Shown here: positions 1 to 7,108 of the stretch, piece by piece
Layout of the letters: every line of letters begins with the position of its first letter
Position numbering within the stretch: position 1 is the stretch's first letter
Virus record (IMG/VR): IMGVR_UViG_2734482594_000023
Length of the DNA: 7,698 nucleotides
Direction: 5' to 3' (one strand)
Source: a virus
Taxonomy: Duplodnaviria > Heunggongvirae > Uroviricota > Caudoviricetes
The notes under the pieces: generated by a model
Told to the model about the DNA's origin: nothing
The model's input: the letters and a program-made list of their open reading frames with translations, nothing else
The model's database searches: none
Translations under genes and position numbers: made by a program

Positions 1-459
1 TTATTCAGTCGGCAGTGCTACGCGCCAGGGGAGCAGTTCGCCGACCCGGTTTATCGGCCAGTCGGCTATGACGTCAAGGACATAGCGGAGGTAGCTTTCT
101 GGCTCCACTCCGTTCAGTTTGCACGTCCCGATCAGGCTGTACAGCAGCGCTCCCCGCTCTCCTCCATGATCCGAACCGAAGAACAGGTAGTTTTTGCGGC
201 CCAGACTGACCATCCGCAACGCATTTTCAGCGATGTTATTGTCCGCCTCAGCCCAGCCATCATCTGCATAGTACGTCAGCGCCGGCCACTGGTTCAGGGC
301 ATATGCGAACGCTTTCGCCAGTTCTGAGTGTCGCGACAGGGTTTTCATCTTTTCACGCAGCCAGCTTTCCAGGGATTTCAGCAGCGGTTTCGTTTTCAAC
401 TGACGTTCGGCAAGGCGCTGTTTCAGCAGGAAGATGTCGTCAGAAGAGATGTCGTTCAT
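1..459 (-). CDS. IS66-family transposase, C-terminal fragment (truncated remnant)
   Basis: The 152-aa ORF carries the conserved C-terminal block of IS66-family transposases (...DNNIAENALRMVSLGRKNYLFFGSDHGGERGALLYSLIGTCKLNGVEPESYLRYVLDVIADWP...ELLPW). The upstream in-frame sequence hits a stop at 520-522, so the N-terminal two-thirds of the transposase and the other IS66 genes are absent on this side. Confidence 0.8.
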   Translation of the reverse strand: MNDISSDDIFLLKQRLAERQLKTKPLLKSLESWLREKMKTLSRHSELAKAFAYALNQWPALTYYADDGWAEADNNIAENALRMVSLGRKNYLFFGSDHGGERGALLYSLIGTCKLNGVEPESYLRYVLDVIADWPINRVGELLPWRVALPTE

Positions 460-522
460 AAGCCCGTATTTTACCGGGCTTATTCTGTGACAACCAGGAT
501 AAAGAGATTTACAGCATGGTCA
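1..522 (-). mobile_element. IS66-family insertion sequence remnant (3' portion only); right boundary approximate
   Basis: Transposase homology runs to the window edge at position 1 and cannot extend past the in-frame stop at 520-522. No IS terminal inverted repeat could be identified by eye. Confidence 0.4.
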
Positions 523-552
523 GGGAGGTCAGCAGCCGCTTAGGCTGTCTAT

Positions 553-677: not shown

Positions 678-1415
678 TCATTCACTCTCTTTCAAACCAG
701 TTTTAACTGTTTGTGGTTTTGGGTAAGGCTGGACTTTGAATAGCTTTGTGTTAAGGCGTTTTCTGGCTCTCTTGTCCAGAAACCGGATGTAACGAAACTG
801 ACGGAATTTATGAACACTGGCTCTGTCGATATTAGCCCGCAGATGTTCACCTCGCTGTCCTCCTCGTTTGATTGCATTCTTGCAAATCTCGTGATACCAC
901 TCGCCATCAAGTTCATAGAATGTTGTTTCATGACTGCCTACATAATCAAAATTGCTTGCCTGGTACACGACACCAAGACAGCCACAACGCTCATCTGCAA
1001 ACGACTGAACCCACTGCACCTGCGGATAAAGTTGTCTGATTAGTTTGAGCGCGTAACTGATTGCCCTTGATTCGGAGTTTCTCGGCATACAGTCATGCAG
1101 CCATAACCGGTTAAGCTCCATATATTCGCGGTTCTGCGTGCCAGTTACGACGCGTGCACCATTGTTTGGATTAAGGGCATAACCCCATTGCATTACGCCA
1201 ACCAGCTCCCGTTCTGAAAATATGCCCAGATGAAGGTAGGAATTATTTACGAAACGATGGCTGTAATGTTTATTGACGACGACCAGCCGGGCCAGCCAGC
1301 AACTTATTGTCTCAACCCGTAACTCACGGGAGCCATAACCGACGATATTGTCGTTATAGTGAATAAGTTCAGGCGTGCTGATGATACGGGATGTAACTTG
1401 CTTTCTGTTCCCCAC
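678..1415 (-). CDS. mom: Mom-family DNA modification protein (adenine carbamoylmethylation, acyltransferase-like); start codon uncertain
   Basis: The ORF lies immediately downstream of, and overlapping, a Com-type zinc-finger gene, as in phage Mu. The proposed GTG start at 1415 gives 245 aa, close to Mu Mom (about 231 aa as I recall), has AAGGAAA 7-9 nt upstream, and sits in the 3' arm of a hairpin. The ORF track extends to a GTG at 1610, which I regard as over-extended; an ATG at 1577 is an alternative. Confidence 0.75.
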
Positions 1416-1569
1416 GACAGGATTTCCTTGTGTATGTGGGGTGCTCTGTGGCGCTCTGAGATGTGATTTGATTGAGGGTTTTACAGCGCGGACATTTAAC
1501 TTCCAGATAACTGAAGCTGGCTCGTGCCAGTAGCTTGTTACAATGTCGGCACCGTATGTTTCGATACAT
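1369..1569 (-). CDS. com: Com-family zinc-finger translational activator of mom
   Basis: The 66-aa product [33 protein letters not shown]... has a CxxC...CxxC zinc-finger layout like Mu Com. AGGAGG lies 10 nt upstream of the ATG at 1569, and the 3' end overlaps the mom start region by about 46 nt. The track's TTG start at 1614 is rejected. Confidence 0.8.
1410..1441 (-). promoter_or_regulatory. mRNA hairpin sequestering the mom GTG start, with the Shine-Dalgarno in the loop (putative Com-responsive translational operator)
   Basis: On the minus strand, CCCCAC (1441-1436) pairs with GTGGGG (1415-1410). The 20-nt loop contains AAGGAAA, and the GTG at 1415-1413 lies in the 3' arm. Confidence 0.45.
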
Positions 1570-2286: not shown

Positions 2287-2541
2287 TTACATCATGGTAC
2301 TGTCAGTTCCGGGCTGAGCCGGGTCTGGTTGCTCTGGCTGCGCGTCGGTTTTCGGCTCATTATCAGCATCACTGGCCGCAACTGCTGGCCCAATAAGTTT
2401 TGCCAGCACTTCATCAACGTAAGTGTCGATTTGTGCCTCAAAATCCTTGCGGACCTGCGCTTTCAGCAACTTATTTACTTCACCGGAATACAGTGCCTGT
2501 TTTACCAGGTCTTCAGTGACGGTGCCTTTAATTTCTGGCAT
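2287..2541 (-). CDS. Hypothetical acidic protein, 84 aa
   Basis: ATG at 2541 has a strong AAGGAGG 7 nt upstream. The product is net acidic (about 16 D/E against 8 K/R) with a Pro/Asp/Glu-rich tail. It lies 35 nt downstream of the small membrane-protein gene, consistent with an operon. Confidence 0.65.
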   Translation of the reverse strand: MPEIKGTVTEDLVKQALYSGEVNKLLKAQVRKDFEAQIDTYVDEVLAKLIGPAVAASDADNEPKTDAQPEQPDPAQPGTDSTMM

Positions 2542-2576: not shown

Positions 2577-2759
2577 TCAGGGCTGGGTCGGGTCTTTTGG
2601 GAGCGGAGTTACCTGCGCTGTTTTACTGAGTTTTTCAGCTGCTGCGTCCTCAATTTTGCGGCGAACATAATTTCTGATGGCCTTATAACCACCACTCACC
2701 AGATATAACGCACATACTGCCGTGCAGAAATACAATAAAATAAGCTGTAAAAATGTCAT
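2577..2759 (-). CDS. Small single-pass membrane protein, 60 aa
   Basis: ATG at 2759 is preceded by GGGAGGG. The product MTFLQLILLYFCTAVCALYLVSGG has one hydrophobic helix followed by a basic, charged tail (KAIRNYVRRKIED...). The track's TTG start at 2771 is rejected. Confidence 0.55.
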   Translation of the reverse strand: MTFLQLILLYFCTAVCALYLVSGGYKAIRNYVRRKIEDAAAEKLSKTAQVTPLPKDPTQP

Positions 2760-2774
2760 TATCCCTCCCAATTA

Positions 2775-2801
2775 TTGACATGGTGTTGACACCGGTAATA
2801 T
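2775..2801 (+). promoter_or_regulatory. Putative sigma70-type promoter on the plus strand, overlapping a 12-bp palindrome
   Basis: A perfect TTGACA at 2775-2780 is followed by a 15-nt spacer and TAATAT at 2796-2801. A second TTGACA lies at 2786-2791, and GGTGTtgACACC (2782-2793) is palindromic. The short spacer is a weakness. Confidence 0.3.
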
Positions 2802-2855
2802 CTGTTAGGTAAAAAGGTGCACTGCATTTTTTGCTTTGGATATAACGATCTTTTT

Positions 2856-2896
2856 GCCGCCGGTTTCTTGTTTTCCCTTACCGGCGGCATTTTTTT
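2856..2896 (+). terminator. Rho-independent terminator, oriented for the plus strand
   Basis: GCCGCCGGT (2856-2864) pairs with ACCGGCGGC (2880-2888) around a 15-nt loop and is followed by T7 at 2890-2896. On the minus strand the stem is followed by AAAAAG, so it is not a good terminator for the esterase gene. Confidence 0.5.
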
Positions 2897-2903
2897 ATCC
2901 TGC

Positions 2904-4440
2904 TTACGCGTTATTCACTTCCACCACGATACTGTCAATCAGTACCGGGTAAGTCGCATTTTTAGTGATATCGGTCACGCGCAACTTGTCTGCCGTAAAC
3001 GTGCCGACCGGAGACTGCGACAGCATGAATGGTGTCCCGTCCTTACCATCAANNNNNNNNNNNNNNNNNNNNNNNNNNNNNNNNNNNNNNNNNNNNNNNN
3101 NNNNNNNNNNNNNNNNNNNNNNNNNNNNNNNNNNNNNNNNNNNNNNNNNNNNNNNNNNNNNNNNNNNNNNNNNNNNNNNNNNNNNNNNNNNNNNNNNNNN
3201 NNNNNNNNNNNNNNNNNNNNNNNNNNNNNNNNNNNNNNNNNNNNNNNNNNNNNNNNNNNNNNNNNNNNNNNNNNNNNNNNNNNNNNNNNNNNNNNNNNNN
3301 NNNNNNNNNNNNNNNNNNNNNNNNNNNNNNNNNNNNNNNNNNNNNNNNNNNTGAGCCTTGCCACCTCCGGCAGCCCAACCCTGTGGTGTCAACCGTCCTT
3401 CAGACTCAGATGCCCGGTAAGCAAATAGCGTACTCATCGTCGTGGTGTCTGCGGGTGGCGTGGACGGTTTTGATGGTGTATCAGGTGACGGCTTCTCATC
3501 CGGTGGTGTCACGGTCTGCCCACGCATCAGTTCAGCCGTGCGCCCTGCATGGAGCATAATAGCTGAGGCCAGACGGTCTGAAATGACGCCCCTGCGTGCC
3601 CATGAGCTGAAATGGCTGTCACGCTGTGTCGAAACAAAACTGCCCTGGGTTCGGGATGCTGCACCGTAATACCCGACAGCCACAATATCCGGGTCTTCCG
3701 CCGGAGCATTCGTTGGCGTGCNNNNNNNNNNNNNNNNNNNNNNNNNNNNNNNNNNNNNNNNNNNNNNNNNNNNNNNNNNNNNNNNNNNNNNNNNNNNNNN
3801 NNNNNNNNNNNNNNNNNNNNNNNNNNNNNNNNNNNNNNNNNNNNNNNNNNNNNNNNNNNNNNNNNNNNNNNNNNNNNNNNNNNNNNNNNNNNNNNNNNNN
3901 NNNNNNNNNNNNNNNNNNNNNNNNNNNNNNNNNNNNNNNNNNNNNNNNNNNNNNNNNNNNNNNNNNNNNNNNNNNNNNNNNNNNNNNNNNNNNNNNNNNN
4001 NNNNNNNNNNNNNNNNNGCGGTCAAACGAATCCGGTAACGGCAGCCCCTCGCCGTAGGCCATGCCATTTGACTGACCCGCGAGAATGACAACAAAGTAAT
4101 ATTCCGGCTCTGAACTGCTGCCATTCGTGCTACCGGAAGGCCCGGCGTTATCCGGTGCATTCCAGTCGGAGGGCGTGAGCGTTCCGGCCACGTCAGATGT
4201 GATTGGAATGATGCCAGTCACGCCTGAACTGGTGATTTCTGCACTGGGATTACCGGATACCGGCATTACCCATAATGGCTCTTTCGTGCTGAAGCGGATC
4301 ACGCAGTCTGCGAAGGTGATCCCCCCTTTATTACCCGAAGGGCGGAAAGGGCTTTCAATAAATGCCACCGTGCCACCGGCAACCTTGACTGAAAACTCTC
4401 CGGGCATGGCGGAGAGCATTTTCCACTTGGAGTCTGACAT
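2904..4440 (-). CDS. NanS-like sialate O-acetylesterase (SGNH/SASA-type) with an N-terminal extension and a C-terminal Pro/Thr-rich linker plus extra domain; frame ambiguous across masked blocks
   Basis: The N-terminal part (4440->4018) contains YYFVVILAGQSNGMAYGEGLPLPD, the GQSN nucleophile block of SASA/NanS esterases. After the mask, TNAPAEDPD...GYYG...SHFSSWARRGVISDR continues the esterase in a different frame, followed by TPPDEKPSPDTPSKPSTPP and a C-terminal region ending at the TAA at 2904. The span (1537 nt) is not a multiple of 3, so either a frameshift lies in 3722-4017 or the masking is not length-exact. Confidence 0.65.
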
Positions 4441-4516
4441 CGTCTTTTCTGCCTGTTTCTGAATTAAACAGAGTCAGAATAGCGACCGCTGAAAAATATG
4501 TGTTTTGCGGAAATTC

Positions 4517-4544
4517 AAAAAAGCGTCACGGTACTTTTGGTGAC
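4517..4544 (-). terminator. Weak hairpin plus U-run at the invertase stop codon
   Basis: On the minus strand, GTCAC (4544-4540) pairs with GTGAC (4529-4525) across a 10-nt loop, followed by GCTTTTTTG. The stem is short. Confidence 0.25.
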
Positions 4545-5136
4545 GGAGCTGGTGAGGCAGGAAAATAACGATAAAGGNNNNNNNNNNNNNNNNNNNNNNN
4601 NNNNNNNNNNNNNNNNNNNNNNNNNNNNNNNNNNNNNNNNNNNNNNNNNNNNNNNNNNNNNNNNNNNNNNNNNNNNNNNNNNNNNNNNNNNNNNNNNNNN
4701 NNNNNNNNNNNNNNNNNNNNNNNNNNNNNNNNNNNNNNNNNNNNNNNNNNNNNNNNNNNNNNNNNNNNNNNNNNNNNNNNNNNNNNNNNNNNNNNNNNNN
4801 NNNNNNNNNNNNNNNNNNNNNNNNNNNNNNNNNNNNNNNNNNNNNNNNNNNNNNNNNNTTGTCCGTAATGCTGCGGAAGTTAACGCCGCGTTGCCGGAGT
4901 TCTTCTGTTAAAAGGACAAGGTGCTGCATACTGCGTCCAAGGCGATCCAGTTTCCAGACCAGCAGGGTATCCCCTGGCCGGAGTCGCTTTAATGCGCGTT
5001 TAAGTCCGGGACGCTCCCTTGTCTTACCGCTTATTCTGTCTTCGAAAAACAGCTCACATCCTGCACATTCCAGCGCATTTCTTTGTAGCGCCGTATTCTG
5101 GTCATTTGTTGACACCCTGATATACCCAATCAGCAT
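4526..5136 (-). CDS. Site-specific DNA invertase, serine recombinase (Gin/Pin/Cin/Hin family); C-terminal frame differs from the ORF track
   Basis: The N-terminus MLIGYIRVSTNDQNTALQRNALECAGCELFFEDRISGK...LLVWKLDRLGRS is a canonical resolvase/invertase catalytic domain. Left of the mask, the frame reading LYRYFPASPAPSPKVP* (stop at 4528-4526) matches the Hin-type C-terminal helix-turn-helix tail (STLYRYFPAS). The track frame ending at 4474 is rejected. The span is not a multiple of 3 if the masked block is length-exact. Confidence 0.8.
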
Positions 5137-5430: not shown

Positions 5431-5613
5431 TATATCCAGGATATCAGGCTGGGAGCAGAGAACAGGCAGGTAATGTACGGTGGGGCATATTACTCTGCGT
5501 ACGGTAATGTTATGGCAGGCCTGCAGATTGACAGTAAAGTTGATGCTTCAAACGATTTTATAGCATTCAGACCCCTGCAAAAATTAGTCGGAGGTACATG
5601 GATTACGGTATCT
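5431..5613 (+). CDS. Alternative tail-fibre C-terminal tip (S'v-type variable exon), 5' end masked
   Basis: The frame is open from the mask edge to the TAA at 5611-5613: ...GAENRQVMYGGAYYSAYGNVMAGLQIDSKVDASNDFIAFRPLQKLVGGTWITVSQL*. Its tail shares the RPLQ..L..G.W.T motif with the minus-strand fibre tip (...[22 protein letters not shown]). Confidence 0.6.
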
Positions 5614-5673
5614 CAGTTATAAATAGTCAGTAAATAATATATTTTAAAACAGATTTATTTCCAGGAGGATTTT

Positions 5674-6195
5674 ATGGAACTAAAAAATATAACCCGTTAT
5701 TATCCTGAAAATATGCCATATGGTAATAATGTTCAGTATTTCCAGAGTGAAGATGGTAAGGATTTCTACGAATCCCTGCCATTATTCACCAAAAAATATA
5801 AACTTTGCATAACACCTGACAGCGGCGTTATCTGCTCAATATCACAGGACGCCTCGGCGCTGTATCCTGCGGGGTTTTCTGTGGTTGAGGTCGATGAACT
5901 CCCTGAAGGCACGGATATTTCAGGAAACTGGAAGTTTGATAATGGCATAATCTCCCGTATTCCGGTTAACTACGCAAGAAAACTGGAAGCAATGCGCCAG
6001 TCATATCTTAATCAGGCATATGAAAAAATTAATGACTGGAGAACGGAGCTACAACTGGGCACCATCAGCGATGAAGACAGAGCAGCACTTACCCAATGGA
6101 TGGCATACATCAGTCAGGTGAAGAAAATGGAACTACCCGCCATTAAAACAGAAGCTGAATTTAACGCCATTAAATGGCCTGAGCAGCCACAGTAA
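5674..6195 (+). CDS. Tail fibre assembly protein (Tfa / Mu U / P2 G-like chaperone)
   Basis: ATG at 5674 has AGGAGG 5 nt upstream. The 173-aa product sits 60 nt after the alternative fibre tip, and its size, position and C-terminal region (...WMAYISQVKKMELPAIKTEAEFNAIKWPEQP) fit the Tfa family. Confidence 0.75.
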   Translation: MELKNITRYYPENMPYGNNVQYFQSEDGKDFYESLPLFTKKYKLCITPDSGVICSISQDASALYPAGFSVVEVDELPEGTDISGNWKFDNGIISRIPVNYARKLEAMRQSYLNQAYEKINDWRTELQLGTISDEDRAALTQWMAYISQVKKMELPAIKTEAEFNAIKWPEQPQ

Positions 6196-6198
6196 TAA

Positions 6199-6218
6199 AG
6201 AAGGCCGGAAGGCCTTCT
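6199..6218. terminator. Perfect hairpin between convergent tfa and tail-fibre genes (probable terminator for the fibre transcript)
   Basis: AGAAGGCC (6199-6206) pairs with GGCCTTCT (6211-6218) around a GGAA loop. On the minus strand the stem is followed by UUAUUACU. It lies 8 nt beyond the fibre stop and 3 nt beyond the tfa stop. Confidence 0.5.
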
Positions 6219-6226
6219 GAATATCA

Positions 6227-7108
6227 TTATATACTTGCAGCCGTCACCCATGCTCCATTTAACAGATACTGCAACGGCCGGTAATACACGCCGCCGACGT
6301 TATCTGCCGTATTCTTACCGACATCCTGTACTTTAATTCCGGTAAGAACATTGCCGCCCCCCAGATTCAGATCCCAGCTTTCCCATGTTCCGGGCATATG
6401 TGCGGTCACCGACCCCAGTCTTATGGCGGTTACTGTTCCTGATGAGATAGTGATATCCTGCGTCCCGTCAAAGGGAACACCATTAATTGTGTGGGCATTT
6501 GCCAGCCTGTTCGCGGCAACGGCGGTGCCGTCCGATGGCAGGGCATTCGCCGCCCTGTTTACCGTTTCCCGTAAACCGACGTTATCGATAAAAGCCCCTT
6601 TATCCGGAATGTCTGCGCCGTTCTGCTCCCTGCGCAGGTAACGGTTATCACCTTCGCTTTTGCTGTAAACATCCAGATTATTACGGGCGGTTCCCTTATT
6701 CTCCAGGTCGGCGAGATTCTGATCCTTCGCCAGGGCATTAACGTCAGCGGGACCAAGACTGTTTTTTGTGGCAAGCGTCCCCAGACCAAGATAACCACGG
6801 GCCAGACGCTGGGCCTCCGCACCGGCATCAGCAATTTCTTTCAGGTTATTTTTCCGGGAAAAGGCATTCGCAGCGATAATGGCTTTAATGGACAGCGTAA
6901 GCTGGTTTAACTGCGCCTTATCCGGCTGAATACTGGCTTCAGCCAGAATATTCAGCAGTTCGGCCTGGAGAATATTCAGCCAGTCCTGACCAATCCAGCT
7001 GATACCTTTTTGTCCGTCACCTTCGGTAAACCAGGTGGTGGTATTACTCTGCGCCGGTGCCAGCGCAGGCATATTCGCCACGCCGGAATTATTATCAACA
7101 TGAAACAT
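6227..7108 (-). CDS. Tail fibre protein (constant N-terminal part plus variable C-terminal tip in its current orientation)
   Basis: ATG at 7108 has GAGGAGA 8 nt upstream, 15 nt after the stop of the upstream baseplate gene. The 293-aa product has an N-terminus [18 protein letters not shown]...WFTEG...[15 protein letters not shown] that I read as the fibre type found in Mu/P2-like phages (from memory), and the crossover site falls in the codons for FIDNVGLRE. Confidence 0.8.
6566..6591. other. gix/hix-like 26-bp recombination (crossover) site for the serine invertase
   Basis: TTCCCGTAAACC-GA-CGTTATCGATAA compared with Mu gixL TTCCTGTAAACC-GA-GGTTTTGGATAA (as recalled) matches at 22 of 26 positions with the same half-site/2-bp core layout. 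It lies inside the tail-fibre ORF at the constant/variable junction. Confidence 0.6.

Follow-up and report, generated by a model that had tools for sequence, protein, structure and literature searches.

The viral DNA deposited as IMG/VR virus record IMGVR_UViG_2734482594_000023 (Caudoviricetes), a stretch of 7,698 nucleotides hereafter called the window, carries at positions 2904-4440 of its minus strand the gene of a sialate O-acetylesterase of the NanS-p family. Very probably, this is a functional-looking enzyme that travels as accessory cargo between gin and the com/mom module, in the variable region at the right end of a Mu-like transposable prophage. NanS-p esterases let pathogenic Escherichia coli use the O-acetylated sialic acids of mucin and have hitherto been discussed as cargo of lambdoid and Shiga toxin (Stx) phages; our search of the searchable literature library found no paper linking nanS-p or sialate O-acetylesterases with Mu-like phages. 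Here the same cassette has been captured by a transposable, Mu-like lineage; its enzymology is ordinary, but its carrier and its N-terminal module are unusual. The genes themselves are already present in public genomes, where they are generically annotated. The gene, which is interrupted by two masked stretches (runs of N), and the parts of its product are located in the window as follows.

2904-4440, minus strand: nanS-p-type esterase gene, 1537 nt as it spans the window and 2055 nt (684 amino acids) with both masks restored.
4201-4440, minus strand: new all-beta N-terminal domain (residues 1-80), which replaces DUF1737.
4105-4200, minus strand: linker 1, rich in Ser, Thr, Gly and Pro and predicted to be disordered (residues 81-112; predicted local distance difference test score, pLDDT, below 50).
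3534-4104, minus strand: SASA/SGNH esterase domain (residues 113 to ~435), of which the mask at 3722-4017 covers residues ~142-372.
4066-4077, minus strand: Block I, GQSN, read directly in the window, with the codon of the nucleophile Ser124 at 4069-4071.
3612-3614, minus strand: codon of the catalytic His409 within RDSHFS (Block V), read directly in the window.
3435-3533, minus strand: linker 2, rich in Pro, Thr and Ser (residues 436-468, from the translation; pLDDT low over residues 433-490).
2907-3434, minus strand: C-terminal DUF6645 lectin-like jelly-roll domain (residues 469-684), part of it under the mask at 3053-3351.

The esterase gene product has four parts, namely an N-terminal domain with a disordered linker, the SASA/SGNH domain, the Pro/Thr linker and the DUF6645 lectin-like domain. 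A preliminary description of the window, made from its letters alone, had called the gene a NanS-like sialate O-acetylesterase with a clear GQSN block, and the searches bear this out with matches well beyond chance. Pfam SASA matched residues 117-312 (E 1.5e-13), and in a sequence search of the PDB the E. coli enzyme NanS (YjhS, 3PT5) aligned with residues 110-428 (E 1.8e-117). In 3PT5, the SGNH blocks are GQSNA with Ser19, RGGSAF, MQGEFD, and R-SHFS with His301 (PMC10792757). All four are kept here as GQSNG, RGGSAF, MQGEAD and SHFS: Ser124 in GQSNG aligns with Ser19, and His409 aligns with His301 in a Block V that, as in NanS, is without Asp. Blocks II (RGGSAF) and III (MQGEAD) lie under the mask at 3722-4017 in the window and are read from the 684-aa protein of its close relatives, where the latter agrees with (H/M)QGE, the form of Block III taken as specific to SASA. 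Every feature of the NanS/SASA family that was tested was found. The catalytic domain aligns end to end with that of NanS, and by alignment both proteins are without an N-terminal signal peptide, but NanS is a single-domain protein of ~326 aa encoded in the chromosomal nanCMS operon, whereas the window esterase is phage-borne and has in addition an N-terminus of ~109 aa and a linker and lectin-like domain of ~250 aa. The Pro/Thr-rich linker leading to a C-terminal region, also claimed in the preliminary description, lies at residues ~436-468, and the region that follows is the DUF6645 domain, with a Pfam match at residues 533-650 (E 7.4e-68) and an alignment of 6YP6, a NanS-p C-terminal domain, with residues 469-683 (E 7e-98).

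The visible parts of the gene are split over two open reading frames (ORFs), 3619-4440 and 2904-4160, across the second of the five N runs in the window. The esterase frame opens with the ATG at 4438-4440 on the minus strand, contains AGQSNGMAYGEG and ends with the stop codon at 2904-2906. The apparent frame change is a mask artefact, because the N runs differ in length from the sequence that they replace. By piecewise mapping onto the E. coli locus L001 (NZ_CP103972), the 296 N at 3722-4017 stand for 694 nt, a difference of 398 nt that changes the frame, and the 299 N at 3053-3351 stand for 419 nt, a difference of 120 nt that keeps it; farther upstream, the 281 N at 4578-4858 stand for 242 nt. 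N-run lengths in the window are arbitrary, and reasoning from length or frame across them is unsafe. A genuine frameshift or pseudogene in the window was considered and rejected, since the mask lengths fully account for the frame change. In 22 complete E. coli chromosomes, the 1701 nt at 2780-4480 correspond to 2219 nt (99.7-99.9% identity), and the esterase is in all of them an intact coding sequence whose product, WP_001284083.1 (684 aa, annotated as ‘DUF6645 domain-containing protein’), is identical to the visible translation of the window. The intact frame that the preliminary description wanted confirmed is the 684-aa ORF of these near-identical genomes, through which, and not directly, the masked bases of the window are read. 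The protein is under purifying selection: for its esterase and C-terminal domains, dN/dS lies at about 0.09-0.16, the values between two E. coli alleles being 0.09 and 0.13, respectively.

Lambdoid prophages carry the closest counterparts of the gene in its downstream part, and comparison with them indicates how it may have arisen. The lambdoid NanS-p proteins, including 933W L0105 (z1466) and the alleles of EDL933 and O104:H4, have SASA and DUF6645 in common with the window esterase. The esterase shares ~65% identity with L0105, and other alleles reach 89-91% over residues ~94-684. In both settings, the gene stands at the end of the late structural block and is followed by DUF1378 (and DUF826). 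The lambdoid order at locus L006 is Q, (stx or a methyltransferase, tRNAs), esterase, DUF1378, DUF826, holin and endolysin; a lambdoid arrangement of the esterase gene is also seen at L004, and a DUF1378 homologue was found by tblastn in the 933W region. The order DUF1378-DUF826 is matched in L006 and in the Mu-like phage L003. Lambdoid NanS-p genes, however, neighbor Q/stx and holin and encode DUF1737, whereas the window esterase neighbors gin and com/mom in a Mu-like, transposable, myovirus-type prophage and has an unrelated beta-barrel domain instead. Two of four NanS-p features are therefore shared (SASA with DUF6645, and the small downstream genes), and the two others, the DUF1737 domain and the lambdoid location, are lacking. 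At the DNA level, L001 and L006 are 88.7% identical over a stretch that begins with DUF1378 and runs into the esterase gene, where the homology ends at L001 position 7849, at about codon 110. Homologues in the protein database form two classes: proteins of 678-691 aa with SASA and DUF6645 that cover the full query, and proteins of 640-655 aa with DUF1737, SASA and DUF6645 that match up to 89-91% over residues ~94-684 (class B). The stop of homology at about codon 110, together with these two architectures, shows that the Mu-borne gene is a lambdoid cassette whose first module (DUF1737 and linker, ~110 codons) has been exchanged at the linker. The lambdoid-derived cargo between gin and com amounts to ~3 kb.

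The exchanged module calls for a correction of the preliminary description. This had noted an N-terminal extension of roughly 120 aa; an extension of ~109 aa relative to NanS is indeed present, but an extension in itself is normal for NanS-p, where it is formed by DUF1737, and what is unusual is the different domain that occupies its place. Likewise, of the two domains named there for a search, SASA/SGNH was found and DUF1737 (PF08410) was not, SASA and DUF6645 being the only Pfam matches in the 684-aa esterase. Residues 1-112 had no match among Pfam, PHROG or NCBIfam models, and PHROG 143, the NanS-p family, spans residues 71-684 only (E 1.7e-296). When 1.84 billion cluster representatives were searched by HMMER with the N-terminal 112 aa, three matches came up, each of them an esterase N-terminus, and no free-standing homologue of the domain was recovered; a word-indexed search for homologues of the first 113 residues matched only fragments of the esterase gene.

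An AlphaFold2 (AF2) model of residues 1-112, built from a small but diverse alignment, has strands between residues 7 and 78 at pLDDT 80-90 and no helix, followed by the disordered linker at 81-112. The full-length AF2 model, made from a shallow alignment, was poor (mean pLDDT 52) and was used only for the N-terminal strands and the disordered linkers, all of which it repeats. The predicted fold is that of a small beta-barrel, of jelly-roll or cupin-like type. Its nearest neighbors, all weak and non-specific, are the cupin dimerisation domains of Mif2p and CENP-C and, weaker still, the PA14 carbohydrate-binding domain and the PM2 spike; neither fold nor sequence searches with the domain gave a functional assignment. 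Between the window-type allele and that of L003, pN of the domain is 0.23 against a saturated pS of 0.77, similar to the esterase and C-terminal domains, and the domain is thus under purifying selection. It is conserved, and in the sequences compared here it is confined to such esterases of Mu-like phages, in E. coli and, with 30% identity, at the one Salmonella locus examined.

The second half of the main finding is the Mu-like context, for which both the Pfam matches in the window (Mom, Zn_ribbon_Com, Resolvase, Caudo_TAP and Phage_Mu_Gp48) and the gene order speak. On the minus strand, read from right to left, the order is a Mu gp48-like gene, tail fibre, Gin-type invertase, esterase, DUF1378, DUF826, com, mom and the right end of the phage. 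The tail fibre has 293 aa (PHROG 1833), and a tail-fibre assembly gene (Caudo_TAP) lies on the opposite strand. The neighbors of the esterase gene are placed as follows.

4474-5136, minus strand: Gin-type serine invertase, directly upstream of the esterase (Pfam Resolvase).
2577-2759, minus strand: DUF1378 small membrane protein, second gene of the cassette (Pfam E 9e-32).
2287-2541, minus strand: DUF826 protein, third gene of the cassette (Pfam E 6e-16).
678-1569, minus strand: module of com (1369-1569) and mom (678-1415) (Pfam Mom and Zn_ribbon_Com; RefSeq annotation).

The Mu-like right end lies at ~543-550, and the flanks to the left of it vary between genomes. In the window, it abuts the last 152 codons of an IS66-family transposase gene (window 1-550), which places the phage inside an IS66 element; in other genomes, the right end adjoins ypdB or bglJ. 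Since the same right end abuts the IS66 transposase gene, ypdB or bglJ, the insertions are independent, and such variable sites are as expected for a transposable Mu-like phage. The Mu-like features found comprise the com/mom right end, gin with an invertible fibre segment, baseplate genes of the Mu gp45-48 set (gp48 by Pfam in the window), a Mu-type transposase, and variable insertion sites; L002 and L007 carry genes of a MuA/MuB-type transposase, Gam, Mor, lysis and head. With phage Mu itself, the window prophage shares the order of tail fibre and invertible segment, gin, com, mom and right end, and here the random insertion sites are ypdB, bglJ and the IS66 transposase gene. To our knowledge, Mu has no esterase cassette between gin and com.

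The position beside a Gin-type invertase and a Mom module, as the preliminary description had it, therefore stands, and its judgment that this placement is unusual stands in part. The placement is rare: the N-terminal domain occurs in 2 of 50,697 phage records, which are also 2 of the 349 records with an esterase homologue, both described as ‘inserted Mu-like phage’, and the N-terminal type occurs in 32 of 5426 complete E. coli genomes. It is not, however, a one-off event, being conserved in a Mu-like lineage that is represented by 22 IMG/VR loci, two diverged E. coli alleles and one Salmonella locus. The 22 IMG/VR loci have the same N-terminus at 97-100% identity and are all in a Mu-like context, with the gene order retained; several are on contigs of 35-40 kb with complete tape-measure-to-fibre modules, some of them also with an intact gin. 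The second E. coli allele, 66% identical, is found at the corresponding place of a Mu-like phage (L003, LC727881) that is complete at 40 kb and inserted in a Stx2c prophage, with the order gin, esterase, DUF1378, DUF826, com, C5 methyltransferase and right end. In Salmonella, an esterase fragment with 30% identity in the N-terminal domain lies just downstream of tail fibre and gin in a Mu-like prophage; a search of IMG/VR for the Salmonella-type N-terminus found none. A megablast of the locus against the phage records gave no match, but the protein-level search did find homologues. E. coli of commensal, clinical and environmental origin carries the lineage, as does at least one Salmonella isolate; its insertion sites are random, and one genome can hold several copies. 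Several genomes carry two or three copies of the element at different loci with identical esterase genes (e.g., strain DLI.5a with L001 and L002), as would fit either transposition or repeated lysogeny in one strain.

By homology, the enzyme would use the Ser124-His409 dyad of its SGNH/SASA domain for catalysis, and its oxyanion hole would be made up of the GQSN, RGGSAF and MQGE blocks. The enzyme would take the 9-O-acetyl (and 7/8-O-acetyl) groups off 5-N-acetyl-9-O-acetylneuraminic acid (Neu5,9Ac2), either free or on mucin glycans, and the de-O-acetylated sialic acid might then be used by the Nan pathway, presumably to the benefit of the lysogen. According to reviews, NanS, z1466 and further NanS-p alleles act on Neu5,9Ac2 as well as on mucin O-glycans and support growth on Neu5,9Ac2. 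The C-terminal lectin-like domain of NanS-p is thought in the literature to target glycans, and the DUF6645 module may do so here. A signal peptide is absent from MSDSKWKMLSAMPGEF, which suggests that the enzyme acts on imported Neu5,9Ac2 within the cytoplasm or else, once the phage has lysed the cell, outside it. The gene is presumed to be expressed: it starts 33 nt downstream of where the gin frame ends as read in the window, or ~100 nt downstream of the stop codon of an intact gin, and shares its strand with the late tail operon and mom. A promoter and terminator scan near the esterase gave nothing above the expectation from shuffled sequence.

Several observations weigh against a functional esterase cargo. 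The integrity of the window's own copy is read from relatives, as ~45% of the gene is masked, and hydrolysis of Neu5,9Ac2, known for homologues of about 65% identity, is here predicted from homology. A consensus scan found no convincing sigma-70 promoter directly upstream of the esterase. A weak hairpin, CGTCAC-N10-GTGACG with a T-run, lies at ~4512-4540 on the minus strand, ~75 nt upstream of the ATG and just past the stop codon of the true gin; IMG/VR relatives conserve this hairpin, which could dampen read-through from gin. Finally, the three examined chromosomal copies of the window allele (L001, L002 and L007) are deletion derivatives with truncated or deleted structural genes and a gin that is frameshifted near codon 104 in L001 (8265-8836) and RefSeq-flagged in L002 and L007, the site being masked in the window, and the esterase gene could be heading for decay in those defective prophages. 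Taken to its end, the argument from these deletions and from the masked share of the window's own sequence would make the gene a decaying pseudogene in a defective prophage, without current function. We regard this as highly improbable, given that the ORF is intact in 22 of 22 near-identical genomes and belongs to a 90%-identity protein cluster of 599 member sequences, that all catalytic blocks are retained, that purifying selection is seen across alleles, and that complete-looking Mu-like prophages also carry the gene. A different role for an active enzyme would be to serve the phage, with de-O-acetylation of a bacterial surface glycan (O-antigen, or the O-acetylated polysialic acid of K1) in adsorption or release instead of action on host mucin. 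Such a role has previously been raised for NanS-p in the literature, the sialic acid of the E. coli K1 capsule is known from the literature to be O-acetylated, and the esterase gene adjoins the tail-fibre/invertase module for host range. The invertible segment, however, holds the fibre genes and not the esterase gene, and no evidence of virion association was found; high identity to enzymes with shown activity on Neu5,9Ac2 and mucin is no guide to which substrate applies. We therefore consider a surface-glycan role unlikely, and prefer a NanS-p-type esterase acting on sialic acids as cargo of the prophage.

What the new N-terminal domain does for this esterase cargo is a separate matter, on which two readings appear about equally plausible and neither of them probable. 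One of them, which extends the explanation preferred above and does not compete with it, is that the domain takes the place of DUF1737 in anchoring the esterase to the Mu-like capsid or tail, so that the enzyme is displayed on the virion and possibly cleaved later. The preliminary description had suggested a tethered or virion-associated enzyme, and the phi24B work lends credence to this for NanS-p of the DUF1737 type. The anchor reading draws on a 2026 preprint in which phi24B gp84, a NanS-p, is a structural protein decorating the capsid, with DUF1737 hexamers on the capsid hexons and with the esterase and lectin domains hanging on linkers that are later cleaved. The protein plan of gp84 (vb_24B_21, 6YP6) is the same as that of the window esterase, with a small N-terminal domain, a flexible linker, the esterase, another linker and a jelly roll. 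In the window esterase, DUF1737 is replaced precisely at the linker, on an esterase body 88.7% DNA-identical to a lambdoid copy, and the part exchanged is exactly the part reported to bind the phi24B particle. Mu-like contexts are the only ones in which the replacement domain has been seen, its three lineages having diverged to identities of 62% and 30%; it is compact, is followed by a disordered tether and, as judged above, is under purifying selection. Against an anchor, a neutral explanation is at hand for the strict pairing of domain type with phage type, in that homology on either side is required for recombination and the two settings differ in their upstream flank (gin versus stx/tRNA). 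The esterase gene is also intact in the examined defective prophages, one of which is without head genes. In addition, the fold matches are weak and of cupin or jelly-roll type, without resemblance to DUF1737, which in gp84 (residues 1-54) has one helix and three strands, whereas the window domain is an all-beta barrel without helix. The SSP motifs proposed for autoprocessing of gp84 are not seen as such in the linkers here, linker 1 reading ...GSSSEPE.... The evidence from phi24B is that of a preprint. The other reading, which we hold just as tentatively, makes the domain an additional module, for carbohydrate binding or oligomerisation, by which the enzyme is tuned and which has no link to the virion. 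It fits a jelly-roll or cupin-like fold whose weak neighbors include cupin dimerisation domains, PA14 and the PM2 spike, and SASA enzymes elsewhere bear appended carbohydrate-binding modules (CBMs), as the literature shows; yet those fold matches are all weak and non-specific, the domain matches no CBM family in Pfam, and confinement to Mu-like phages is not what one would expect of a general-purpose module, even if neutral linkage could account for it here as well.

The finding gains in value from the recent claim that the N-terminal position of NanS-p is a virion anchor. The lambdoid and Mu-borne genes form a natural domain-swap experiment, with nearly the same esterase body and a different N-terminal module, and owing to this swap the role of the N-terminal module as capsid anchor is directly testable in a second, unrelated virion type. 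It is conceivable, though we put it forward with reserve, that NanS-p proteins are mucus-modifying enzymes of modular build that the virion displays, with an N-terminal anchor that is swapped according to the particle, DUF1737 for the phi24B-type capsid and the beta-barrel for the Mu-like one. If so, Mu-like phages of E. coli and Salmonella would bear a tethered sialate O-acetylesterase on the particle surface, and the anchor swap would be an example of a mucus-interaction function moving between unrelated phage morphotypes.

Some further observations concern the neighborhood of the cassette. The fibre segment (window 5431-6596) is oppositely oriented in the two prophage copies of strain DLI.5a (L001 and L002); given that gin is frameshifted, the inversion either preceded the frameshift or was catalyzed in trans. 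At L013, L014, L018, L021 and L026-L028, there is no Gin match between the tail-fibre assembly gene and the esterase, although L027 and L028 at least retain the last ~60 nt of gin, which points to deletions by which the fibre segment is fixed in a single orientation. Between DUF826 and com, a 97-aa ORF at 1826-2119 on the plus strand matched nothing in Pfam or PHROG; some Mu-like relatives have it while others lack it, and the place it occupies is thus a variable slot for accessory genes (morons). An Rfam scan of the window found no RNA family. Directly 3' of the esterase stop, a GC-rich stem of 9 bp, GCCGCCGGT / ACCGGCGGC, encloses a loop of 15 nt (2857-2889); a T-run follows on the plus strand only, and the stem therefore looks like a terminator for the opposite direction and not for the esterase transcript. 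Downstream of com, the lineage of the 66%-identical allele (L003 23420-24472; L025) has a 350-aa C5 cytosine DNA methyltransferase in place of the mom that the window prophage shares with Mu, an exchange of one DNA-modification module for another under com.

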